From: a virus
Lineage: Duplodnaviria > Caudoviricetes
Direction: 5' to 3' (one strand)
DNA: 64,000 nt
Virus record (IMG/VR): IMGVR_UViG_3300020045_015293
Coordinates: 1-64,000 of that record
Both the position numbers and the translations under genes were made by a program. Below, in pieces: positions 5,594 to 52,441 of the stretch (position 1 is the first letter of the stretch; every line of letters begins with the position of its first letter). The notes below the pieces were generated by a model, which saw only the letters and a list, made by a program, of their open reading frames with translations, did no database searches and had not been told where the DNA came from.

Positions 5594-7234
5594 ATGAATA
5601 AACAAATAATATTTAATCAAGAAGCAAAAGACAAATTATTAATTGGAATTGAAAAATTATCAAAAGCAGTATGTTGTACATTAGGTCCATCTGGAAGAAA
5701 TGTAATAATAGAAAAAGAACATGGTCAAATATCTTCAACTAAAGATGGAGTAACAGTTGCAAAATCTATATTTTTATCTGATGTAATTGAAAATATGGGG
5801 GCACAGATGGTAAAACAAGCTGCTATTAAAACAGGAGAAATTGCAGGTGATGGTACAACCACTGCAACTTTATTAGCATATGAATTAATAATAAATGGTG
5901 TTAAGTCTATTAAAGCAGGTAGTAATGCTGTTGAAGTTAGAAAAGGAATGGATAAAGCATGTAAATTAGTTATAGAAGAATTGAAGAAAATTTCCAAACC
6001 TATAAATGATGAAAAACAAATAAAACAAGTAGCTACAATATCTGCAAATAATGATGAAGAAATAGGTAATTTAGTTGCTACAGCTATGGAAAAAGTTGGT
6101 AGAGATGGTATAGTATCTGTAGAAGAAAGTAGAACAGGAGAAACATATCTTGAATCAGTAGAAGGAATGCAATTTACAAGAGGTTATAAATCACCTCATT
6201 TTGTTACTAATCAAAATAATATGCAAACTGTTTTAACAGATGTTTCGGTATTAATATATGATAAAAAAATAACTCAAGCAAAAGATTTATTAGCAATTTT
6301 AAATCATATATCATCTAATAGTAAATCTTTATTAATTATTGCTGAAGATATAGAAGGTGAAGCTTTAGCAACCTTAATTGTAAATAAAATTAGAGGAACA
6401 ATAAAAGTTGTTGCTGTTAAAGCACCTGATTTTGGTGATAGACGTAATCAAATATTAGAAGATATTGCAATATTAACAGGAGCACAAGTAGTATCATCTG
6501 AAAAAGGAATGAAATTAGAAACTCCTAGTACTGATTGGTTAGGACAGGCTAGAGTAGTAACAGTTACTAAAGATGATACTACCATTGTAGATGGTAAGGG
6601 TAATGAAGAAAAATTAAAAGAAAGAGTGTTGGCTCTAAAAGAACAAATAGATGCTTCGGATTCTGATTTTGAAATAGAACGTTTGCAAGATAGATTAGCT
6701 AAATTAATTGGTGGTGTTGCTATTATTAATGTAGGAGGAGCAAATGAAATTGATATTAAAGAAAAGAAAGATCGTGTTGACGATGCATTACAATCAACAA
6801 AAGCTTCATTAGAACAAGGTATTTTACCTGGAGGTGGTATAGCATTGTTACGTGCTTCTGCAGTATTAGGAAATAAAAAATTTCTTAATTCTCTTAATGA
6901 AGATGAAAATTTAGGAGTTGATTTAGTCTATGAATCATTAAATAAACCTTTTTATCAAATTTTAAAAAATGCTGGTTATAGTGAAGATAATATATATAAT
7001 TTATATTATAAAATATTAAGTAAAAAAGATGTATGGGTAGGTTTTAATCCTAAAATAGGAAAAATTGTAAATATGTTTGATGATGGAATTTTAGATCCTA
7101 CTAAAGTAACTAGAACAGCACTAGAAAATGCAGTTTCTGTTGCAGGTACAATGTTAATAACTGAAGCTGTAATTGGAAAAGAAAAAGAAGATAAAAAAGA
7201 TGAAGAACCTGATTATTCAAATTTTGGAATGTAA
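5594..7234 (+). CDS. groEL: Chaperonin GroEL
   Basis: TLGPSGRNV, TKDGVTVA, AGDGTTTAT, KAPDFGDRR. Confidence 0.97.
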   Translation: MNKQIIFNQEAKDKLLIGIEKLSKAVCCTLGPSGRNVIIEKEHGQISSTKDGVTVAKSIFLSDVIENMGAQMVKQAAIKTGEIAGDGTTTATLLAYELIINGVKSIKAGSNAVEVRKGMDKACKLVIEELKKISKPINDEKQIKQVATISANNDEEIGNLVATAMEKVGRDGIVSVEESRTGETYLESVEGMQFTRGYKSPHFVTNQNNMQTVLTDVSVLIYDKKITQAKDLLAILNHISSNSKSLLIIAEDIEGEALATLIVNKIRGTIKVVAVKAPDFGDRRNQILEDIAILTGAQVVSSEKGMKLETPSTDWLGQARVVTVTKDDTTIVDGKGNEEKLKERVLALKEQIDASDSDFEIERLQDRLAKLIGGVAIINVGGANEIDIKEKKDRVDDALQSTKASLEQGILPGGGIALLRASAVLGNKKFLNSLNEDENLGVDLVYESLNKPFYQILKNAGYSEDNIYNLYYKILSKKDVWVGFNPKIGKIVNMFDDGILDPTKVTRTALENAVSVAGTMLITEAVIGKEKEDKKDEEPDYSNFGM

Positions 7235-8180: not shown

Positions 8181-8783
8181 ATGATACAATTAGAAAATTG
8201 CGTTAAACGTTTTGGAAAATTAATTCTTGATGAATTAAAAGATATGGAAATAAAAACATGGGTTGCAGGTGGAGCAGTTCGAGATTATTTTCAATCAATT
8301 GAAATAAAATCAGATATTGATTTATATTTTCAAAATCAAAAAGATTTCGATAAATGTAAAACATATTTAATAAAAACTGAAGGAAAAATATACTTTGAAA
8401 ATGAAAAAGTAATTAAAATTGAACGTAATAAATTAAAATTAGATTTAGTAAAAACTTTTTTTGCATCACCTGGTTTTTGTATTGGTGAATTTGATTTTAC
8501 TGTTTGTTGTGCTGCTGTTGATTTTGAAAGAGTTTATTATAATAATACATTTTTTATTGATTTAGCTAAAAAACAATTAATGATTAATAAATTAAATTAT
8601 CCAATTTCAACATTATGGAGATTACAAAAATATAATTGGAAAGGATTTAAAATATGTAAAGGTGAATTAACAAAAATTGTAGAAGCAATTCAAAATACCC
8701 CTAAAATTAATGAATTAATTCCAGTAGATAATATGTTTGATGAATTTCAATCAGATTCAAATTTATTTATGGGGATTGATTAA
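8181..8783 (+). CDS. Pol-beta-fold nucleotidyltransferase (CCA-adding/poly(A) polymerase head-like)
   Basis: VAGGAVRD..SDIDLYF and DFT motifs. Confidence 0.7.
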   Translation: MIQLENCVKRFGKLILDELKDMEIKTWVAGGAVRDYFQSIEIKSDIDLYFQNQKDFDKCKTYLIKTEGKIYFENEKVIKIERNKLKLDLVKTFFASPGFCIGEFDFTVCCAAVDFERVYYNNTFFIDLAKKQLMINKLNYPISTLWRLQKYNWKGFKICKGELTKIVEAIQNTPKINELIPVDNMFDEFQSDSNLFMGID

Positions 8784-16593: not shown

Positions 16594-17235
16594 ATGCATA
16601 GTATTTCATATGCCATAACAGTATGTAATGAACGTGAAGAATTAGAACGTTTATTAACTCAACTTTTTGAATATGTACGAAAAGAGGATGAAATAATTGT
16701 ACAATTTGATACTCAAAATGGTAGTTCTGAAGTTAAAGATTATCTTGAAATAACTTCAATGTATACTGTTATTGAAGGTATAGATTTTCATAGAATATTT
16801 TTTCCTTTAAATAATAATTTTTCTGTTTTCAAAAATGAACTTAAATCTCATTGTACAAAAGATTATATATTTTTTATAGATGCTGATGAGTTATTACATG
16901 AAAATTTAATTTTAAATTTACCTATAATATTAGAAAATAATGATGTAGATGTAATTTTAATACCTAGAGAAAACTATGTGGAAGGAATAACAGAACAAGA
17001 TATTAAAAAATGGGGATGGGTAGTTGATGAAAAAAATCGTATAAATTATCCTGATTTTCAATATAGAATAGTTCGTAATAAACCTGGTTTAGTTTGGAAA
17101 AATAAAGTTCATGAACAAATAATAGGAATTAGAACATTATCTTCTCTTCCATATGATGTAGAAGGGTATTGTTTATTACATTATAAAAATATAGATAAAC
17201 AACGTAAACAAAATGAATTTTATTCAAAATTATGA
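16594..17235 (+). CDS. GT2-family glycosyltransferase
   Basis: ITVCNE, FFIDADE, VHE. Confidence 0.88.
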   Translation: MHSISYAITVCNEREELERLLTQLFEYVRKEDEIIVQFDTQNGSSEVKDYLEITSMYTVIEGIDFHRIFFPLNNNFSVFKNELKSHCTKDYIFFIDADELLHENLILNLPIILENNDVDVILIPRENYVEGITEQDIKKWGWVVDEKNRINYPDFQYRIVRNKPGLVWKNKVHEQIIGIRTLSSLPYDVEGYCLLHYKNIDKQRKQNEFYSKL

Positions 17236-42297: not shown

Positions 42298-42368
42298 GCG
42301 GGTATGGTGCAATGGTAGCATAAGTGATTCCAAACCACTTGATAAGAGTTCGAACCTTTTTATCCGTG
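42298..42368 (+). tRNA. tRNA-Trp(CCA)
   Basis: Manual cloverleaf; loop TTCCAAA. Confidence 0.9.
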
Positions 42369-42373
42369 CAAAT

Positions 42374-42446
42374 GACTCTATGGTGAAATTGAATATCATT
42401 CTTCTTTCCTAAAGAAGCGTTTCAGATTTGAATTCTGATAGAGTTA
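42374..42446 (+). tRNA. tRNA-Arg(CCT)
   Basis: Manual cloverleaf; loop TTCCTAA. Confidence 0.85.
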
Positions 42447-42455
42447 CTAAAATAT

Positions 42456-42528
42456 GGTTCCATGGTGAAATTGAATATCATTCTCGCCTTCTAAGCAAGA
42501 GTTTCGGGTTTAAATCCTGATGGAACTA
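42456..42528 (+). tRNA. tRNA-Arg(TCT)
   Basis: Manual cloverleaf; loop CTTCTAA. Confidence 0.85.
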
Positions 42529-42535
42529 CTAAAAT

Positions 42536-42608
42536 GGACTTATGGTGAAACAGAACATCACTCCACGCTACGGACGTGGCATTTCGGGTTTGAATCCTGA
42601 TAAGTCTA
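42536..42608 (+). tRNA. tRNA-Arg(ACG)
   Basis: Manual cloverleaf; loop CTACGGA. Confidence 0.87.
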
Positions 42609-42700
42609 CTAAAAGAGGAGCGGAAACGTACCATGAAATCCCGAAAGGGAGAATTGGGTCAGATCGATGGCTTTAAAAATTCTAACCTCTTTTTCAATAT

Positions 42701-42773
42701 GGCGGTATGTCCGAGCGATTATAGGTGCTAATCTGCAAAATTAGTTAGGTTGGTTTAACTCCAACTACCGCTT
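42701..42773 (+). tRNA. tRNA-Cys(GCA)
   Basis: Manual cloverleaf; loop CTGCAAA; U73. Confidence 0.85.
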
Positions 42774-42839
42774 CAAAAAATAAATTTTTTTATTCCAAAA
42801 AAAGAATTTAATTTTATATGTTCTTTGAAATTTAAATAT

Positions 42840-42912
42840 CTAGGTGTGGCCGAGATGGGAAGGCACTACTTTTGGGAAGTAGACCAAGCAGGATCGTCAC
42901 CTGTCACCTAGA
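42840..42912 (+). tRNA. tRNA-Pro(TGG)
   Basis: Manual cloverleaf; loop TTTGGGA. Confidence 0.85.
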
Positions 42913-42985
42913 CATAACTACCTAGTCCGACTTAACTTTGAATTTAATTATGTTAAATTTAGGGGATTGTGAGGGGTAGTTAAAT

Positions 42986-43060
42986 GGGGATATAGTATAA
43001 ATTGGAATAGTATGGTGGTTTTGCATACCATCGATCCGGAATCGTGGTCCGGTATCTCCA
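42986..43060 (+). tRNA. tRNA-Ala(TGC)
   Basis: Manual cloverleaf; G3:U70. Confidence 0.85.
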
Positions 43061-43122
43061 CAAAAGTTCTTTGAAAATATTCGTTTTTTATTTTTTCCAC
43101 ATATTTATACCAAATATAAATT

Positions 43123-44037
43123 ATGGGAAGATTAAAATATACTAAAGAATTACTTGAAATAAAAGTTAAAGAAAGTTTTTCATTAAGAGAATTAATGGAA
43201 AAATTAGGGATGAATTATTATTCAAGTCAAAAACATATAAGAAATTTACTTGAAGCTTATAATTTAAATACTTCACATTTTATTGGAATTAAGATACAAA
43301 AACGTAATAATGAAGAAATATTTAAAACTGATTCTAAAGTAAATAGATCAACTTTAAGAAAAAGAATTATTGATAATAATTTAATTCCATATATTTGTCA
43401 AAATTGTAATTGTAATGATGAATGGATGGGTAAAAAAATGCCTTTTATATTAGATCATATTAATGGAATAGGAGAGGATAATAGAATTGAAAATTTAAGA
43501 TGGCTTTGTTCAAATTGTGATTCAATACAGGATACTTATAAATCAAAAAATAAAAATTCGAGTAAATCAAGAAAAAGAATAATTAATAAAATAAACAGAG
43601 AATCTGAAATATTAAATATTAAATTAAATAAACATAAAATTACAGAATTAAAAAATAATGAATTAAAACAACAAATACTAAATTCAAGAGTAGAATTTAA
43701 TGAAATGGGGTGGGGAGTAGAATTAAGTAAAATATTAAATATGACTCCTCAAAATTGTTTGAGAATAACTAAAAAATTATTACCTGAATTTTATAAAGAA
43801 AAATGTTGGAAAAAATTTGAAGATAAAAATAAATTTAAAAGACAAAAAGATTTAGAAATTGAAAAATCAAAATATAATTTAGAAAAAATAAAGAAAAATA
43901 TTAACCTTATAAAAGCATCAAAAATTAATTTTAAAGAAAGAGGTTGTTTTGTAAAAGCTAATCAAATATTAGGATTTAAACAAACTACAGATGCTATTAA
44001 ATGGTTAAAAAGAAATCTCCCCGAATTAATAAATTAA
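43123..44037 (+). mobile_element. Free-standing HNH homing endonuclease inside the tRNA array
   Basis: CQNC..LDHING..DNRIENLRWLCSNCD. Confidence 0.85.
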
Positions 44038-44109
44038 AAACAAAAACATGAAAAATTCCAACAGCCTAACGCTTTAAGGTTACTGACAAAACAGTAGCCC
44101 AGCGTAAAA

Positions 44110-44280
44110 ATGGCTAAAAAAGAAGGCGGTGGTAAAGGTAAAAAAGGTAATAAAAAATACGGCCGCGAAATTAAAAAAAGATCAAATAGAGGAAGTACAA
44201 TTTCTTTATTTGTTCGCAACAGAATTACTGCTGAAGAATATTTTAGAAAAGCAGGATTATCTCTAAAAAGAGATAAATAA
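44110..44280 (+). CDS. 56-aa Lys/Gly/Arg-rich basic protein (below the ORF-track cutoff)
   Basis: Hand translation MAKKEGGGKGKKGNKKYGR.. Confidence 0.6.
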   Translation: MAKKEGGGKGKKGNKKYGREIKKRSNRGSTISLFVRNRITAEEYFRKAGLSLKRDK

Positions 44281-44283
44281 ACA

Positions 44284-44423
44284 GGCTCCGGAAGTCGTGA
44301 GTTCGAGTCTCACCTTGGCCCGAAAGGGCTGAGTAGCTCAGTTGGTAGAGCGCCGGACTAGGTTATCAATTAACGAGGACGTTAGTGCACGCCTACAATG
44401 CAGTAATGCAAGAGGATAACCGC
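44284..44423 (+). ncRNA. Circularly permuted tRNA-like RNA (YrlA-type Y RNA candidate)
   Basis: Order T arm, loop-closed acceptor stem, D arm; open anticodon stem TCCGG/CCGGA. Confidence 0.75.
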
Positions 44424-44428
44424 AAATT

Positions 44429-44501
44429 GGCCCTATAGCTCAGTTGAGAAGAGCTCTGGTTTTACATACCAGGTGCACCCGTTCGAATCGGGTTAGGGCT
44501 A
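44429..44501 (+). tRNA. tRNA-Val(TAC)
   Basis: Manual cloverleaf; loop TTTACAT. Confidence 0.88.
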
Positions 44502-44543
44502 CTTGAATTTTCGAAAAGATCTTTGAAATAAATAACGTTCTTA

Positions 44544-44681
44544 ATCAGGAATAGATTTTACAAAAAATGGGTGGGGTAATAAATTATCAAAAATAATAAA
44601 TAGATCTCCTGCTTGGACTTTAAAATGGGTGAAAAGTAATATTCCAGAAATTGAAAAAATTTGTTTTAAACATTCTTTTTA
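44544..44681 (+). pseudogene. Relic of a homing-endonuclease C-terminal repeat
   Basis: SGIDFTKNGWGNKLSKII..KWVKSNIPE resembles the C-terminal repeats of 43123-44037; no start codon. Confidence 0.6.
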
Positions 44682-44684
44682 AAA

Positions 44685-44758
44685 CGAGGTAACGCATAAA
44701 TGATGGTGCACCTGCCTTCCAAGTAGGAATAGAGCCGGTTTGATCCCGGTTACCTTGA
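44685..44758 (+). tRNA. tRNA-Gly(TCC)
   Basis: Manual cloverleaf; loop CTTCCAA. Confidence 0.8.
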
Positions 44759-44864
44759 CAACATACACATTCCCCTTCTCATAAGAACAGGGTGCTCAGA
44801 GTGTGTTTTTTATATGCCGAGTTGAAAGGGAATCCACAGTGGGGACACTGCCCCTCGGCTCCAT

Positions 44865-44937
44865 GCGAATATAGCACAATGGCTCAGTGTACCGGCTTGC
44901 CAAGTCGGTGATGACAGTTCGAATCTGTTTATTCGCT
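44865..44937 (+). tRNA. tRNA-Gly(GCC)
   Basis: Manual cloverleaf; loop TTGCCAA; U73. Confidence 0.9.
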
Positions 44938-45309
44938 CATAAATAAAAAATTATGATTATTCTTTCTGGTTGATGTCTTGACTCTGTAAAAAGAATCAAT
45001 GATGAATCAAAACAAACAAATTCGACTTTGGAGAGTCGAGTGGGTCCATAAAAATGGATACCGTGCCCCTCATTATTGGGTTGAGGCAAAAGTAGTAATA
45101 AGGAAAGGTAATGTGAATGAAAAGGAAACAAGAAAAAATGCAGTAAAAGCTGCAAAACAACACTCAAGATTAGGTGATTTTCCTAAAACTTGGTATTGTA
45201 AAATTACAGATGTTAGTGAATAACTAATATCTTAAAAATAGATTCCACGCTTCCCATCTCGAAGGATAATGAGAAGAATAATACGTCTTTCAAGAATCTA
45301 TTTTTATAT

Positions 45310-45381
45310 TGCCACTTGGTGTAATGCGTAGCACAAGAGTTTTTGGAGCTCTTTGTTTCAGTTCGAATCTGAAAGTGGTGA
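45310..45381 (+). tRNA. tRNA-Gln(TTG)
   Basis: Manual cloverleaf; loop TTTTGGA. Confidence 0.87.
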
Positions 45382-45389
45382 CTTAAAAT

Positions 45390-45473
45390 GGAGGATAGCA
45401 TGCAAGGTGCATAACTGGCTTTGAACCCCAGGCCAACGCTGATCGCGTTGAGGTTTCGATACTTTATCCTCCG
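45390..45473 (+). tRNA. tRNA-Ser(TGA)
   Basis: Long variable arm CAACGC/GCGTTG; loop TTTGAAC. Confidence 0.78.
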
Positions 45474-45476
45474 CAA

Positions 45477-45668
45477 AAATAAAAAATGAGCTATCGCTAT
45501 ATTAATATAGAGGAAACTCAGGACTCCGTTGTTTAATTTGGAAGACGAAAGTCGTTATACCAAAGAGGGAGAAACTTAAAACAGTCTATATGGATGAACA
45601 ACATGGACAAGGTAAAGGATTAGACAAATGATAGCATAAAACAGAAACCTGGTTACTATTTTTTATTT
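45477..45668 (+). ncRNA. rnpB: Minimal RNase P RNA (catalytic domain, S-domain reduced to one hairpin)
   Basis: GAGGAAACTCAGG and ACAGAAACCTGGTTAC form P4 with bulged U; P1, P2, P3, P5, P6, P7 and L15 GGU all identifiable. Confidence 0.85.
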
Positions 45669-45671
45669 TAT

Positions 45672-45742
45672 CCCGCTATGGTGAAATGATATCACTTCAG
45701 TTTGTGGATCTGAAATTATAAGTTTGAATCTTATTAGTGGGA
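45672..45742 (+). tRNA. tRNA-His(GTG), without G-1:C73
   Basis: Manual cloverleaf; loop TTGTGGA. Confidence 0.8.
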
Positions 45743-45751
45743 CATTAAAAA

Positions 45752-45842
45752 GGAAGTTAAACCCATGATGGCATTGGGGAATACCTGCTAAGTATTTTAT
45801 CGGCTATAAACCGATACGTGAATTCGAGTTTCACAACTTCCG
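45752..45842 (+). tRNA. tRNA-Ser(GCT)
   Basis: Class II cloverleaf; loop CTGCTAA. Confidence 0.9.
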
Positions 45843-45847
45843 CATAT

Positions 45848-45926
45848 TGGATAGTACCGAGCCATCCTGATAAGATGGATAATCGTAGCGGTGTTGTAAA
45901 CGTGGGTTCAAATCCCTCCTATCCAA
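45848..45926 (+). tRNA. Atypical tRNA-Ile(GAT)-like RNA with no D arm
   Basis: Acceptor TGGATAG/CTATCCA, arm CCATC-CTGATAA-GATGG, T arm present. Confidence 0.5.
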
Positions 45927-47384
45927 CTAAACTTCTGAGTCATAAACAAAAAAACCACTCGGGTTCAAGGGAACTATACACCATGCAGAGTAAGTATTTG
46001 CAAATGCTTGACTCATAAGAAAACCTTAAAGTATAGTAGTTGTGAGGGTGACACAAACTTAGAAGTTTAACTTATTTAATTTTTAGTTATGAAATATAAA
46101 AAACTTAAAGTTCCTGAAACATCATCTTGGGATAGAAAACCAACATTTTTTAGACGCTATTTCCCAATTTGGTTAAAAGAATTTGTTGAAGGAATAAAAA
46201 ATATTATTAGATGGATTCCAACTATATATAAAGATAAAGATTGGGATCAATATTTCATAATGAAATTACTTCAAAAGAAAATTGAACATCAAAGAGAATA
46301 TTTAATTTATCATAATCGTCACATAGGAATAGAACAAGATAATAGAAATATGACTTGGGTTCTAAATTTAATTGAGTACCAAATCAATGATTATTATGAA
46401 TTAGAAAAATATGATTATGTTGAATTTGGAAAAAAATTACTTGGACCTTATAAATCTGAGAAATTAGATAATTATTTAGTAAAATATCCAGGAACTATTC
46501 GAAGAGTAAAACAAAAATATCCTAATATAAACTTTGATAATAAAGATAGACTTTCATTGTATGTAGGTATATATAATCAACAAAAATGTAATCATTTAAT
46601 TTGGAAAATAATGGAAGAAAAAAGTGGGCAATGGTGGGATTAATACTTTTTTCCAAAGTTTTTTTCTTACCTTTATGCTAGTAAAAAGGTTATGAAATGA
46701 AAGTAATTCCTAAAATAGAACCTAAAAAAGTTTATACTTTACGAACTTTTTATGATGCAGGTATAATTCATATACATACTTTAGTTTATTTAAGATTTCA
46801 ACATATATTTAATTCTAATATATATTATATACCACATCGTACTAGTGAGTATTTAAAATCATTTAAATTTTTAAATTTAAATTCAGCAAAAAATGCACCA
46901 ATACCAAGTAACCCTGAAATTAAATCATTTGAAAAAGATATTGAAATTAAAATTTGTGGGGAAGTATTTGAAGCTGAAAGAATCGAAGCAGATACTAAAT
47001 TAATATCAGATATTATTGGGGAAAATGGTATTATTTTATTATAATTTTTTAAAATGAATGTAATTCCTGAAACATTTTTGAGAAAGTTAACTATTAGGAA
47101 CAATGCAATAGTTATCCCTAAGAAAATAGATGAATTAAAAGACAGATCTAATGAATATAAACAATTATTTGAAATGCGTTTACTTTCATTTGTTCATGAT
47201 GGAACAATAACAAGAGCGGTGTGTGAATTGTTAAATGATCTTCCTTATGATCATAATTTTAATATTGCACAAGAAAATAGAGAAAAAGGTAGTATTATTT
47301 CATTACCAATAAGTATTTTAAAGTTTGTTAAAGAACCTGAGGTTTCCTAAATTTCGATATATTTATATACAACAAAAAATTATT

Positions 47385-47474
47385 ATGTTTTTACAAAGTT
47401 TGATAAATACAAATATTCTTACGTTAGATTATATGGATAATCTAAATGAGGATAAATCTGTTACATCAGGCTAG
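47385..47474 (+). CDS. Leader peptide 2 MFLQSLINTNILTLDYMDNLNEDKSVTSG, amber stop
   Basis: Hand translation; follows ATATTTATA. Confidence 0.7.
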   Translation: MFLQSLINTNILTLDYMDNLNEDKSVTSG

Positions 47475-47498
47475 ACCAAATCAATATATACCATTCGT

Positions 47499-47533
47499 AA
47501 AAGCCTGATGCCCCCGAAGCGTTAGGCTTTTTT
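47499..47533 (+). terminator. Intrinsic terminator (attenuator) ahead of tRNA block 2
   Basis: AAAGCCTGATGC-CCCCGAA-GCGTTAGGCTTT plus T tract; competing 9-bp antiterminator 47464-72/47502-10. Confidence 0.85.
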
Positions 47534-48325
47534 AGTTCTTTGAAAATATTTTTTTACCCAAAATTTTTTACATAATTTTATATTATAAAATATAAGGTTA
47601 TGAGTCAAGTAATAAATAAAAAAATCAACCTAAATTTAGTAGGTTTAGATGGAAATGCATTTTCTATTATGGGAGCATTTCAAAAACAAGCCCGTAAAGA
47701 AGGATGGAGTAAAGAGGAAATTGATGCTGTGATAACAGAGATGCAATCTGGAGATTATAATCATTTGTTACAAACAGCAATGGCACATTGTGAAGATCCA
47801 GAAGATGAAGAAATGGATGAAAATTATGTAACTGATGAAGATGGAGATTTTAATTATTAAAATACAAATTTATGTATTTAAATACACATAAAGATCGTGG
47901 TGAATCAACTTACCAATTAGCCAATAATGTAGGCGATAGAGGAGGATGGGTTAAATTTGATTGGGATAAAGATGTTCAAGCTGTTAAACCACATTATGAA
48001 AATACAATTGTTGTATTAAAAAATGGTACACATTATTTGTTATTTGGAAGAGGATATGGTGTATAAAAATTAATTTTTATGGCTAAATTATATACAATAG
48101 AAGAAATTAAAACATATATAACATCACAAGATTCACTTGGTGATGCCTTATATAACTTGAATGAAGATAATGTTGATAAAGCAGTATGGGAAGATAAATT
48201 TCAAGCTATAAAAGAAGAAATAATGGATGATAGTTTTGATGGTAATGAAGATGAATTAATGAGAGAAACAGAAGAACTATTTAAGAAAAGATATAAATTT
48301 GATTATTACGATAAATATTAAAAAT

Positions 48326-48397
48326 GGACTGGTAACTTAAAGGCAAAGTAGCATCCTGTTAAGATGAAGAGTGTGGTATCGTGATCCACCCAGTCCG
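48326..48397 (+). tRNA. tRNA-Asn(GTT)
   Basis: Manual cloverleaf; loop CTGTTAA. Confidence 0.82.
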
Positions 48398-48480
48398 CAA
48401 AAAAATTAATAGTACTCATAGTTTAAAACTGTTATAAAGGAGTAGTTAAATTAGAATATGGAGACCATATTTAGCTATTA

Positions 48481-48491
48481 GTTCTTTAACA
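48481..48491 (+). promoter_or_regulatory. boxA-like antitermination element GTTCTTT(G/A)A; representative copy
   Basis: Also near 42820, 43066, 47535, 49457, 50954, 62741, with a variant at 62944; confined to the RNA island. Confidence 0.6.
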
Positions 48492-48509
48492 TTATAAATT
48501 TTAAAAAAA

Positions 48510-48580
48510 GGGATAACGTCCAGGGCAGATCACAACGACTGTAAATCGTAGGTGTTGAGTTTCGATTACTCATTATCCCA
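48510..48580 (+). tRNA. tRNA-Tyr(GTA), short variable loop
   Basis: Loop CTGTAAA; weak D arm. Confidence 0.7.
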
Positions 48581-48706
48581 CTTAAATAAAAAATTCTTTT
48601 TCCAAAATTATTTGTTTAATTTTATAAAAGTAGAAATTTTTCAAAAACCAAACTGTTATGTTGGGAAAAAATATCTAAACAATATTTTTGACTAAGTAAA
48701 CATAAC

Positions 48707-49042
48707 ATGAAAGTAATATCTCAATCCTATTTTAGAAATCAATATATTCGAGAAATAATTGATAACTTTAATTGGGAAAGAATTCATAAAGTGATGGTTT
48801 TTCTTCAATGGAAATATTTAAATGAAGAAATTCCTGAAATTGATGATTTAAAATTATTAAGTAAAAATTTACTTGACAATATTTGGTTATCAACAACTAA
48901 ACAACAGAATGAAACATGGAGCATAAAATCAGGTGGTTTTAAAGCAACAGCTTCATACAATTCAAATAAAAAAAGAATTGACTTTTTAAAATTGGAATTT
49001 ATACTTAGTGATTATTATAAAGAAGAAAATGATGAAGGATAA
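48707..49042 (+). CDS. Hypothetical protein, paralog of 3712-4077
   Basis: IIDNFNWERIHKVMVFLQW. Confidence 0.7.
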   Translation: MKVISQSYFRNQYIREIIDNFNWERIHKVMVFLQWKYLNEEIPEIDDLKLLSKNLLDNIWLSTTKQQNETWSIKSGGFKATASYNSNKKRIDFLKLEFILSDYYKEENDEG

Positions 49043-49902
49043 AGTAACTATAGTAACAGCTGATTGGAAAGATATTGATGGATTAGCTAATGCTTTTAAA
49101 AAAGCTATAAGAAAATTAGGAGCTCATATTTATAATCATCCTGATTTTGAAGGTAGCGATACTTATGGTTTTATTGTTAGTGATAAAAAATTGAGTAGAA
49201 AGAAAATTAAAGATAATTATTGTATTCCAAAAGAAGAAATAGATTATATTTATCCAATTGGAGCATAAAAAACATGAATAGGGAAGAAAGAGAAGAAAGA
49301 ATACAACGTGCCAAAGAAGAATTTGGTGAACAAGTTGTAGCAGAAGTTAGAGAAGTTGTATCAATGAGTGATCCTGATGGAGCTTGGAGTACATATAGAG
49401 ATTTTGAAAAGTATGATCATTGTGCATGTATTGAAATGATTTATTTTGAATAAAAAGTTCTTTGAAGACAAGAACCTGATAACTAACAGGCACTTTTAAA
49501 AGTTAGGAAACAGGGAATATGCGGTGCCAGCATGTGGATAGCTACTAAATAATATTAAAAGTAGTTCCGGTGAAAGGATGTTTCACAACCAATCACTGAA
49601 AAAATAAAAATGAATAATAGAACGTTTTGGACGTCTGAACGACAGCTCGAAAGAGTTATTACGGTTCCCTATTATTCATTAACTTGATTAAAATTATTAG
49701 GTGGTAATGAGTAGAGTTACATCGCGTGGAATGGTTCCACACCCAACTCAGGATTAGGCTCTGCCGTTCAATTCGGCCAGTTAATCTCTACCAAATTTTC
49801 CCCTAAAATAATTATAAATTATTGGATGGTTATAAATCAGTTTCATCGCTAATGGTCAATTTGCAAAAAATACTGATTTAAATTTTCCTCCAAAATTAAT
49901 TT

Positions 49903-49975
49903 GGCCCTGTCGAATAATGTGTTAGTTCGTTGCCCTTTCACGGCAAAAATTTCGGTTCAAATCCGTGCGGGGCTA
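49903..49975 (+). tRNA. tRNA-Glu(TTC)
   Basis: Manual cloverleaf; loop CTTTCAC. Confidence 0.87.
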
Positions 49976-49997
49976 CTAAAAGAAAAAGGTTGCGTAA

Positions 49998-50585
49998 ATG
50001 AATATATTAAAATTAGATGATTTACCTCTATATGACTTAGGTAATACAATTCAAATATCAGGAATGATATTACAAGGTAATGATAAAACTTACAATGTAT
50101 TTTTTCCAGATAAAAAAATTGAGAATCCTGAATTAGTAGAAGTAAATGAAGATGAATGGAAAAAATTGTTGCTACAATTAGATACTTTAGAAACAGTTTT
50201 ATTTCCAGGTAATCCAGGTGCTAAAATAGTTGTACGTAAATCTCAACGTATAATCGAATCAGCAATGATTTGGAAAGTTTTTAGGAGAGATAATTATACT
50301 TGTCAGTATTGTGGTGCAAGAGATAAACCATTGTCAGTTGATCATGTAGTTCTTTGGGAAGATATGGGTGGAACTGTTGAAGAAAATTTATTAACTGCAT
50401 GTTCTGCATGTAATATGAAAAGAGGTAATATGAGGTTTTTAGATTGGTTGGATAGCGATTATTATAATAAATGTTTGAAAAATTTTGGTAATGAAGATCA
50501 ACAATATAATCAAGATAAAAAATTGTTAGATTTTTGGATAATAGCAAGAGATTTACCATTACGTACAAATAAAAGAGGGAGGTAA
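49998..50585 (+). CDS. HNH endonuclease domain protein
   Basis: RRDNYTCQYCG..VDHV..NLLTACSACN. Confidence 0.88.
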   Translation: MNILKLDDLPLYDLGNTIQISGMILQGNDKTYNVFFPDKKIENPELVEVNEDEWKKLLLQLDTLETVLFPGNPGAKIVVRKSQRIIESAMIWKVFRRDNYTCQYCGARDKPLSVDHVVLWEDMGGTVEENLLTACSACNMKRGNMRFLDWLDSDYYNKCLKNFGNEDQQYNQDKKLLDFWIIARDLPLRTNKRGR

Positions 50586-50876
50586 TTATGAATACTATAT
50601 TAATAATACTTTGTAGTTGTTTATTTCTTATTCAGTTAGGATTAATATTAAGATATTTTAATATTGAAAAAAATAATGATTGGAATTTTTTAGGACAAGG
50701 AGGATTGGTAAATTTAATTGCATACCCTATAATGGTATGGATAATGTTTTTAATGTGGAAAGAAAGTGAGAATTATTATAAAAAAATAGTTGAAAAAAAT
50801 AAAATAGAACAAAAATATTCACCAACTTATACTTCAGAAAAGGGGGATACTTTGTTTACAAGAGTAAAATAAATAT

Positions 50877-50944
50877 GGAGGGGTAGCTCAGAGTAGAGCA
50901 CTGTCTAAACAACAGGGGTCGGTAATTCAGTTTGCCCCCTTCCG
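50877..50944 (+). pseudogene. Degenerate tRNA (4-bp anticodon stem, 6-nt T-loop)
   Basis: Acceptor and D arm intact; anticodon arm 15 nt. Confidence 0.5.
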
Positions 50945-51145
50945 CAATAATTAGTTCTTTAAAATATGGAGATGAATGTTTGTAATAGAACATTTTGGTT
51001 ATTCGGTTAATCCATCTCCACTACATGCCGGGAAAGCAAAAACATACTGTTTTAAACTTTCCCCGAAAGGTGGTAACTAAACAGTTACATCGCAATACAA
51101 TCAACATTTGTTAAGATTCCCGCAAGGGTCCCGGCACCATTTTGA

Positions 51146-51237
51146 AACATTCGCGCCTGATGGTTAATGATCATTAAGACTGTGAGGCTAGCAGTTGACC
51201 CCAACACTTAAGTCAGTGGGGTATGGCGACGAATGTT
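51146..51237 (+). ncRNA. Multi-branched RNA with a GNCGAANG helix (Y RNA candidate)
   Basis: Closing stem AACATTCG-CGCC/GGCG-A-CGAATGTT. Confidence 0.5.
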
Positions 51238-51241
51238 AAAC

Positions 51242-51316
51242 AGCCACGTAGTTTACTGTGTGTAATCGGGAAATTGTCGATTTCCGTCGGGGCGAGTTCG
51301 ATTCTCGTCGTGGCTG
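51242..51316 (+). tRNA. tRNA-Asp(GTC)
   Basis: Manual cloverleaf; loop TTGTCGA. Confidence 0.8.
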
Positions 51317-51484
51317 CATATATTTATACACCCACAGAATGAATCTAACTTAAGGGTACTAGTAAAAACTTAAGGTAATGCGTTTGAAATTTGGTTCAGG
51401 TTTCGCCTGTGTGGGTGTATAAAAATCTCAATGTGTAAATTAACTAGTGCATGACACCGTAGCGTAGAAAGTTGAGATGAATAT

Positions 51485-51558
51485 ACTGATATAGCTCAGA
51501 GGTTTAGAGCAGGATGCTTATACCATCAAGGTCGGGATTTCAAAATTCTCTATCAGTA
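51485..51558 (+). tRNA. tRNA-Ile(TAT)
   Basis: Manual cloverleaf; loop CTTATAC. Confidence 0.8.
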
Positions 51559-51575
51559 CAACAAAATTTTTATAT

Positions 51576-51655
51576 CGTGGGGGAGTGGAAAGGACACACA
51601 AACCATTCAAGCCTCATAAGCTTTGAGATAGCCAGTTCGATTCTGGTCCCCGCAA
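51576..51655 (+). tRNA. tRNA-Met(CAT), C1:A72, enlarged D arm
   Basis: Loop CTCATAA; canonical T arm. Confidence 0.65.
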
Positions 51656-51739
51656 CAAACTATTCTTATAATAGTATGAATTGGAAAATAAATTTCCAAT
51701 TAAAAAACTCCCGAATTCATTCTTGATATAGGGGAGTTA

Positions 51740-51811
51740 TGGCGCAGCCTCAGGTGAGGAATTTTGGCTCATATCCTAAATTAGACATGGTTCAATACCA
51801 GTATGCGCTAC
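51740..51811 (+). tRNA. Atypical CAT-anticodon tRNA-like RNA
   Basis: Acceptor TGGCGCA/TGCGCTA; loop CTCATAT; weak T stem. Confidence 0.45.
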
Positions 51812-51953
51812 ACCAGATGTAATAGTGTAAGCTAGAAGTACATCAGCAATTGGGATCTTACAATCCGTGAATTGTGGTTTAGGTTAACACGAAGGTAACG
51901 AAGTGCTTTAAGTCACCTAGCAGTTAGAATACCACTAGAAGTTCTAACAAAAT

Positions 51954-52028
51954 GCCTCTTTAGTAGTAATTGCAGCAGCTATCCGCACTTGTAATGCGGG
52001 GGTAACAGTTTGAATCTGTTAAGGGGCT
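51954..52028 (+). tRNA. tRNA-Thr(TGT)
   Basis: Manual cloverleaf; loop CTTGTAA. Confidence 0.82.
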
Positions 52029-52088
52029 CAAAGAAATTAATATAAGTTTTATGACCCCCCTGGTTACAAACAAAATATTAGTTTCTTT

Positions 52089-52440
52089 ACCGGTTACGGG
52101 TTTATTTTGTTGGTTTTTATCCCGTAAAAATTAAAAGAAAAACCAATAGAATTAAACCCGATGTTAAACGCTGTTATAAAATTTTAGCGATGAAAGTTAA
52201 ATATGTGAAATTACAAAGCGGAGAGGTAATAATGTTTCCTCCCGTTATTGAACACGATACATTCAAATACCTGAACCCAATAACGGCAGGATTTTGTTGC
52301 ATCGGAAATGATAAAGTAGAGTGCTTTGGAGAAAGTTACTCACTCAAATTGAAGGCAGACGAAAAGCAAGATACATTAGATGCAACAAAACATTATTTTG
52401 GAATAGAGGCGATGATAAAAATTTTATAATTGCGTTTAAC
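52089..52440 (+). mobile_element. attC-like hairpin plus GTT..AAC inverted-repeat-flanked gene cassette (ORF 52190-52429)
   Basis: Arms 52097-117/52139-160; 23-bp IR 52163-185/52418-440. Confidence 0.55.
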
Positions 52441-52441
52441 A

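Follow-up and report, generated by a model that had tools for sequence, protein, structure and literature searches.

Gene content of the locus

The sequence analyzed comes from an IMG/VR virus contig of 88.6 kb, with a CheckV completeness of 49% and a GC content of about 25-26%, in which all genes lie on the same strand. The window, i.e. the whole stretch of DNA that was analyzed, covers the first 64,000 nt of this record, and all window coordinates given here refer to the plus strand. The contig contains a T4-like replication module (PolB, clamp loader and GroEL), and its tRNA genes, at least 21 in number, form an array; tRNAs are the only RNAs reported for the window by Rfam at gathering thresholds. 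Within the array, at 45477..45668, lies a gene of 192 nt for a complete miniature RNase P RNA (mini RNA), as judged from a match to the Rfam model RF00373, the pairing of its helices and covariation among its relatives.

The mini RNA is tightly flanked on both sides. Upstream, a tRNA-like cloverleaf with a long variable arm is found at 45390..45473, separated from the first helix (P1) by 3 nt. It folds with a z-score of -2.4 into a cloverleaf shape, and is called neither by ARAGORN nor by Rfam, even at E up to 10. This element is probably a tRNA-Ser with a 6-nt T-loop, the predicted anticodon being UGA; its anticodon stem is closed by a C-C mismatch. Downstream, a tRNA-His(GTG) gene (45672..45743) begins 3 nt past P1. 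The same junction between RNase P RNA and tRNA-His recurs in the closest, best-scoring relatives of the window copy (L194 and L176). The tRNA-His genes behind these two mini RNAs encode G(-1), unlike the gene of the window, which has a U at -1, C1:G72 and A73. Neither a Thg1 homologue nor a clear CCA-adding enzyme was found in the source contig. An ORF of 200 aa (8181-8783) shows a weak signal for a Pol-beta-type nucleotidyltransferase (phrog_1614; the head domain PF01743 scores 16 bits, which does not reach the cut-off), and its product may represent a tRNA nucleotidyltransferase of minimal size. Between the mini RNA and its neighbours, no site resembling a promoter or a terminator was seen. 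P1, being A/U-rich, was considered as a possible terminator or promoter and rejected: it has no G+C-rich stem, and site counts are not above those of shuffled sequences.

Anatomy of the 192-nt RNA

The initial annotation had read this sequence as an RNase P RNA without specificity domain (S-domain), about half as long as usual, and had recognized P2, P3, P4 with its bulged U, P5, P6, P7 with a GAC-GAAA-GUC cap, the GGU of L15 and the conserved region AGACAAAUG (45622-45630). All these elements are in place and perfectly paired, and the length of 192 nt is indeed about half that of a usual RNase P RNA. In a narrow permissive scan with Rfam models, RF00373 (archaeal RNase P) was the sole match of the window copy, with 47.2 bits and an E value of 2e-12 over model positions 1-288 and the full length of the RNA. 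Conserved regions CR-I, CR-IV and CR-V align, and about 117 S-domain positions of the model are replaced by 29 nt. The score is to be compared with a gathering score of 84 for RF00373, and the mini RNA falls below every Rfam gathering threshold. Genome-wide searches with RF02357, RF00010 and RF00011 gave no match; these are weak negatives, obtained behind a coarse pre-filter that no RF02357 candidate passed. When the three conserved regions are combined into one pattern, the window contains a single match, the chance expectation being 0.00.

The mini RNA has a GC content of 32%, and all of its ten helices are perfectly paired. P1 (45477-45488/45657-45668) consists of 12 bp, A-U throughout except for one terminal G-U, and all 12 pairs covary in the family. 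P2 (45490-45495/45630-45635) pairs GCUAUC with GAUAGC over 6 bp; it is 98.3% paired in the family, with covariation in 5 of 6 pairs. The P3 hairpin (45497..45510), defined by its pairing and by the family alignment, has 5 bp and a UUAA loop. It is followed by CR-I, GAGGAAACUCAGG (45510..45522), which aligns to the CR-I of RF00373 and holds the 5' strand of P4. P4 itself (45515-45522/45648-45654) pairs AAC(U)CAGG with CCUGGUU over 7 bp, U45518 being bulged. P5 (45524-45527/45568-45571, CUCC/GGAG) is 100% paired, and its four pairs all covary. The P6 pseudoknot joins 45528-45533 to the P17 loop (45597-45602) through six Watson-Crick pairs, GUUGUU/AACAAC.

What is left of the S-domain lies within P7 (45537..45564; 5 bp, UUUGG/CCAAA). 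The 18 nt that P7 encloses, compared with about 150 nt for a normal specificity domain, form the GAC-GAAA-GUC hairpin inside an asymmetric loop. They leave no space for P8-P14, nor for CR-II and CR-III, which belong to the P10/11-P12 junction of the S-domain. P18 is absent as well, only 4 nt separating the 3' strand of P15 from CR-IV; the missing P8, P10-14 and P18 had been noted initially. The asymmetric loop around the stub (45542-45559) is well conserved across the family, with two purines on its 5' side (GA; AA in the window) and G-U-U-N-N-A on its 3' side. This loop could be a docking motif that substitutes for lost S-domain contacts.

On the 3' side of P5, the junction J5/15 reads AAA (45572..45574), with A97 and A98 invariant in the family; by homology, it would contain the adenine proposed to contact tRNA position -1. 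The P15-P16/17 arm with the L15 internal loop follows at 45575..45617; P15 is 100% paired and its three pairs all covary. The GGU on the 3' side of L15 (45611-45613) comprises G135, which is invariant, and G136 and U137, which are at least 80% conserved. CR-IV (45622..45630) was aligned to the RF00373 consensus and is kept in two family members that were found without any motif pattern. CR-V, ACAGAAACCUGGUUAC (45641..45656), includes the 3' strand of P4 and is recognized from the RF00373 alignment and from family covariation; the two members found without a pattern retain it as well. CR-IV (AGNNNAAU) and CR-V (ACAGAA...UUA) are in register with P2 and P4. These features support the identification of the RNA as a phage-encoded homologue of RNase P RNA, in which the specificity domain is cut down to a stub.

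A family of related RNAs in phages

Relatives were searched with a covariance model (R1) built on the single sequence of the window and restricted to nested helices, so that P4 and P6 are not encoded in it. IMG/VR was scanned with a motif pattern of the conserved regions, and R1 was then applied to the candidates. With a spacing like that of the window, 20 of 23 candidates are full-length R1 matches (196-228 nt, 32-55% GC), the 3 other pattern matches in viral contigs being due to chance. A shorter spacing gave 8 members of 156-177 nt (38 of the 46 pattern matches being chance), and a longer one 54 members of 219-255 nt (25 chance matches out of 79). Full-length relatives are thus present in at least 82 viral contigs, with lengths of 156-255 nt and GC contents of 31-60%.

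Two further matches to R1 were obtained independently of the pattern. One is located in a published phage genome of 642 kb (LR756502.1, 68 bits); the other, in the cultured Stenotrophomonas phage DLP6 (KU682439.2, 105773-106019, 56.7 bits), lies in an unannotated stretch and ends 6 nt ahead of a tRNA-Arg. Contigs filed as cellular contain 9 true members, the other 69 of 78 pattern matches there being chance: 6 in Planctomycetota MAGs, 1 in an Opitutaceae MAG, 1 in the MAG of an uncultured archaeon and 1 in the cultured Achromobacter anxifer. The latter copy (strain LMG 26857, NZ_CAHLAR010000005.1, 6075-6296; L099) follows a tRNA-Pro at a distance of 7 nt, amid 32 tRNA genes that are densely arrayed over 8 kb. 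No member was found in the cultured phages Mel-JY01, P-HM1 and ACG-2014f, nor in two relatives identified through PolB and represented by short contigs (L016 and L017). BLASTN of the mini RNA and two of its relatives against the phage collection gave no match; the RNA is too diverged for BLAST.

Covariation and conservation

Covariation was analyzed on an alignment of 21 sequences, with two controls, in which the 3' partners were slid or the alignment was shuffled 500 times. Standard pairs are formed in 94.7% of the alignment cells, compared with 33-44% for slid partners. Both sides change in 45 of 56 pairs, and none of the 500 shuffles reaches any of the measures. The two helices that R1 ignores behave in the same way. 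In P4, pairing reaches 98.6% and four pairs covary, and the two copies found without the pattern (LR756502.1 and DLP6) add further compensatory changes to it. For P6, 5-7 Watson-Crick pairs are formed between the strand of each member and its own P17 loop. In the six members with a variant P6, the window copy among them, no cross-combination of strands is as long as the proper pairing, and the 6 pairs of the window are matched by 0 of 19. The invariance of CR-I, CR-IV and CR-V in the alignment was partly imposed by the search pattern; A97, A98 and G135 are invariant too, and the discovery pattern did not demand them. Taken together, the covariation, the pairing of P4 and P6 and the unforced invariant positions rule out chance. 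Along with the RF00373 match (E 2e-12), the family covariation bears out the initial identification as an S-domain-poor RNase P RNA encoded by a phage.

The RNA could in principle be a functionless, decaying fragment of a captured host rnpB, as its size of roughly half the normal one and its score below the Rfam thresholds might suggest. We regard this as hardly credible: at least 82 viral contigs, whose GC contents range from 31 to 60%, share the architecture, compensatory changes occur in every helix, and covariation is not expected of pseudogenes.

Graded loss of the specificity domain

The family is heterogeneous in the S-domain remnant. The closest relative of the window copy, L194 (137 bits, 233 nt), differs from it chiefly in that 47 nt are inserted into the stub hairpin. 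At the other extreme, L149 (159 nt) has lost the whole P7 module together with the stub, and the loop that forms P6 caps P5 directly; the specificity domain is wholly missing in the members of 156-177 nt. The insertion in the former and the loss in the latter indicate that the range of 156-255 nt reflects a graded erosion of the remnant S-domain next to a constant catalytic domain. With 192 nt, the window copy stands in the lower-middle part of this range.

Comparison with known RNase P RNAs

The mini RNA was compared with the described classes of RNase P RNA. It shares with bacterial type A (RF00010; E. coli M1 RNA encoded by rnpB, T. maritima P RNA) the helices P1-P5, including P4 with its bulged U, and P15-17. 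Also in common are P6 between J5/7 and the P17 loop, the GGU on the 3' side of L15, which pairs with the tRNA 3' end, the J5/15 adenine, CR-I, CR-IV and CR-V, as well as bacterial-looking U(-1) substrates and, in one carrier, a bacterial-type RnpA. Several family members have their best Rfam score on RF00010, at about 63 bits. Unlike type A, the mini RNA has no P8-P14, no CR-II/CR-III and no P18, is about half as long and does not reach the gathering threshold; its genes are carried by phages, within tRNA arrays.

Archaeal type A (RF00373), the best Rfam match of the window copy, likewise lacks P18. However, the 47.2 bits obtained with the S-domain part of the model skipped are far below the gathering score of 84, and the RNA is carried by tailed phages, T4-like ones among them, whose tRNAs have bacterial features. 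The resemblance to RF00373 probably reflects the shared absence of P18 and not an archaeal origin.

Archaeal type T (RF02357; PMC3579882) is the only natural class of S-domain-less design previously described. It is also about 200 nt long, with a conventional catalytic domain and most of the S-domain missing. The paper on metagenomic rnpB finding reports that type T RNAs are catalytically active without an S-domain, and that this minimal type is limited to Thermoproteaceae (PMC7191817). The two designs differ in several respects: type T has a P2 of 3 bp, a shortened P15 and a GC content of 61-78%, whereas the mini RNA has a P2 of 6 bp and 32% GC; type T belongs to one archaeal family (Thermoproteaceae) and works with the proteins Pop5, Rpp30 and Rpp29, whereas the mini RNA belongs to a tailed phage; and RF00373 gives at most 10 bits to type T RNAs, compared with 47 for the window RNA. 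These differences point to an independent, convergent reduction of the S-domain.

The nearest precedent in print is provided by the extra RNase P RNA copies of Mycobacterium austroafricanum and M. sp. YC-RL4, which have a diverged or altered S-domain and were probably acquired horizontally (PMC9569102). In the P12-less RNase P RNAs of some CPR bacteria (PMC8172020), S-domain helices are altered or partly missing. Both groups, like the mini RNA, were found by lowering Rfam thresholds, but they are chromosomal and near full size, and were described neither as phage genes nor as fully devoid of an S-domain.

Protein partner, substrates and proposed mode of action

A gene for the protein subunit RnpA was found neither in the source contig (49% complete) nor in the one complete carrier genome (G003), so that the host is presumed to supply this protein. 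Among 20 carrier records, one encodes RnpA (C1:35853-36140, 50 bits, above the Pfam cut-off). This record, G022 (171 kb; the record of L042), carries both subunits, the mini RNA being at 16733-16955 and RnpA 19 kb away.

The reading that we favour, with a probability of roughly 0.7, is that the window contains a genuine and selectively maintained gene for an RNase P RNA of bacterial type-A ancestry, with a complete catalytic domain, which would work with host RnpA. As far as can be judged from sequence comparison, the mini RNA most likely functions as an RNase P RNA that normally borrows this protein from the host. Biochemical precedents exist in the active type T RNAs mentioned above and in the C-domain of the E. 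coli RNA, which is reported to cleave pre-tRNA on its own with reduced efficiency (PMC5839562). A non-catalytic role as decoy or regulator may be opposed to this reading: the RNA, having kept the side of its C-domain that binds RnpA, would sequester host RnpA, or compete with host M1 RNA, and so remodel host tRNA processing. The missing S-domain and the score below Rfam thresholds fit such a role, as does the lack of a phage RnpA in most carriers, which would place the RNA in competition with the host RNA for the host protein. It is nevertheless improbable, since the family conserves parts of the active site and of the substrate contacts for which a decoy would have no use (P4 with its bulged U, the J5/15 residues A97 and A98, P6 and the GGU of L15), and the phage that encodes its own RnpA would make little sense for a sponge.

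The favoured catalytic role agrees with the tRNA neighbourhood of the family. A same-strand tRNA is present nearby in 63 of 83 members; the remaining 20 have none anywhere in the retrieved locus. In 26 members, a same-strand tRNA starts 24-34 nt past ACAGAA, i.e. roughly 0-10 nt beyond the end of P1; the value for the window is 26 nt, which corresponds to the 3-nt gap after P1. This frequent contiguity, the 3-nt gap between P1 and tRNA-His and the conservation of the junction in L194 and L176 would also be expected of a cis-acting leader ribozyme, in which the mini RNA would serve as 5' leader to the next tRNA and process this tRNA alone, without being a general enzyme in trans. We consider this quite improbable: no tRNA adjoins the mini RNA on its downstream side in 57 of 83 members, and for 20 no same-strand tRNA was seen in the retrieved locus; the downstream tRNA comes in 12 kinds; and, from geometry, a spacer of a few nt would hardly let a tRNA enter the active site of its own leader.

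The tRNAs of the window (genes at 42298-55204) look like bacterial substrates and would fit a bacterial RNase P. U(-1) is found in 17 of 21, and C74 is encoded in all 21, which is striking at 26% GC and fits the retained GGU of L15; none of the 21 encodes CCA. Pairing of L15 with CCA thus needs prior CCA addition, unless C74 alone is used.

A mode of action may be proposed for a catalytic mini RNA working in trans. Considering the tight tRNA flanks, with no promoter- or terminator-like site in between, co-transcription with the tRNAs and release by tRNA end-processing is the simplest reading. The mini RNA would be transcribed within the phage tRNA array; its 3' end would be freed by RNase P cleavage at the 5' end of tRNA-His, and its 5' end by 3' processing of the upstream tRNA-like gene. 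Together with host RnpA, it would then cleave the 5' leaders off the more than 21 pre-tRNAs of the phage. Substrates would be recognized through the acceptor stem, U(-1), the 3' end and the leader, without use of the elbow formed by the T- and D-loops.

The elbow of the phage tRNAs

The initial annotation had also explained the mini RNA as an enzyme adapted to the elbow-rewired tRNAs around it. Its observation on the tRNAs holds: the A19:U56 pair is real in the window, where U56 is found in 7 of 21 tRNAs, 6 of which have GA instead of GG in the D-loop. As a reason for the existence of the mini RNA, the proposed match is not supported, other carriers being largely canonical. C56 is found in 149 of 153 tRNAs from 20 other carrier loci, and the three U56 cases seen among other carriers are in the most AT-rich phages; the swap therefore tracks AT pressure and not possession of a mini RNA. 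The corresponding scenario, in which the S-domain was lost specifically to mature tRNAs with an A19:U56 elbow that host RNase P handles poorly, can draw on the seven U56 tRNAs and their D-loops, and on the aberrant 6-nt T-loop of the upstream tRNA-like gene. It is very improbable in view of the canonical carriers, and of the 14 tRNAs of the window itself that are canonical at position 56. Moreover, the S-domain stacks on the elbow pair and does not read the identity of its bases, so that an A:U pair at this place would not necessarily hinder the host enzyme. Tolerance of A19:U56 tRNAs is possible as a side effect of the loss of the S-domain.

A broader version of this idea would make the mini RNase P a private, elbow-independent maturation channel of phages with large tRNA arrays, for structurally deviant phage tRNAs that the host enzyme handles poorly; it would also sustain phage translation at times when host RNase P is scarce or switched off. 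In the present phage, candidate substrates would comprise the tRNAs with A19:U56, the Ser-like one with its 6-nt T-loop and the tRNA-His devoid of G(-1). We hold such a channel to be rather unlikely, and retain as preferred reading an RNase P RNA of bacterial ancestry that serves the phage pre-tRNAs with host RnpA.

A phage-borne variant of a known ribozyme

RNase P RNA is counted among the housekeeping ribozymes of cells, and textbooks present phages such as T4 as dependent on host RNase P. A search of the accessible full-text literature, which covers few subscription journals, found no description of a phage or viral RNase P RNA family, and a 2024 review on RNase P makes no mention of a phage-encoded RNase P RNA. 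The family described here is conserved and phage-borne, differs in structure and in ecology from the described forms of this known ribozyme, and is very likely functional. Within the searchable literature, it would be the first viral class of RNase P RNA. It would also be the second, independent natural case of S-domain loss, which was earlier known from one archaeal family alone, and would extend the phage translation toolkit (tRNAs, tmRNA, synthetases) into tRNA processing. The graded series from 156 to about 255 nt is well suited to asking what a natural RNase P minimally needs, and the copy of the cultured phage DLP6 makes the idea directly testable at the bench. All family members are below the Rfam gathering thresholds, which constitutes a blind spot of annotation; a scan of megaphage genomes with all Rfam models reported only tRNAs and a tmRNA (PMC8172020).

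Other features of the tRNA regions

Several additional elements were observed in and around the tRNA arrays. Large structured RNAs cluster in the tRNA regions of carrier phages: near the mini RNA lie GOLLD RNAs that exceed the gathering score, as well as group I introns and a tmRNA (L036, 5642-6103; L037, 312-770; L021, 426-1037). In the window, the tRNA array is interrupted by an HNH endonuclease gene (phrog_10822, 43123-44037). Directly after tRNA-Ser(GCT), a tRNA-sized stretch (45846-45930) combines an irregular body with an acceptor-like stem of 7 bp and a T-loop of canonical sequence, UUCAAAU. It folds no better than shuffled sequences (z = -1.0) and may be a degenerate or intron-bearing tRNA.

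An amber-suppressor tRNA (anticodon CTA) is located at 52442-52513. Reading TAG as sense alters just 2 of the 18 long ORFs of the window, so that any recoding would involve genes elsewhere, perhaps late genes. Ro60 proteins of bacteria and phages partner tRNA-like Y RNAs. A protein with a Ro60/TROVE domain is encoded shortly downstream of the tRNA array (57438-59003; Pfam TROVE, 6e-13; phrog_850, 'RNA-binding protein'), and a weak YrlA-like match was observed in another carrier locus (L032).
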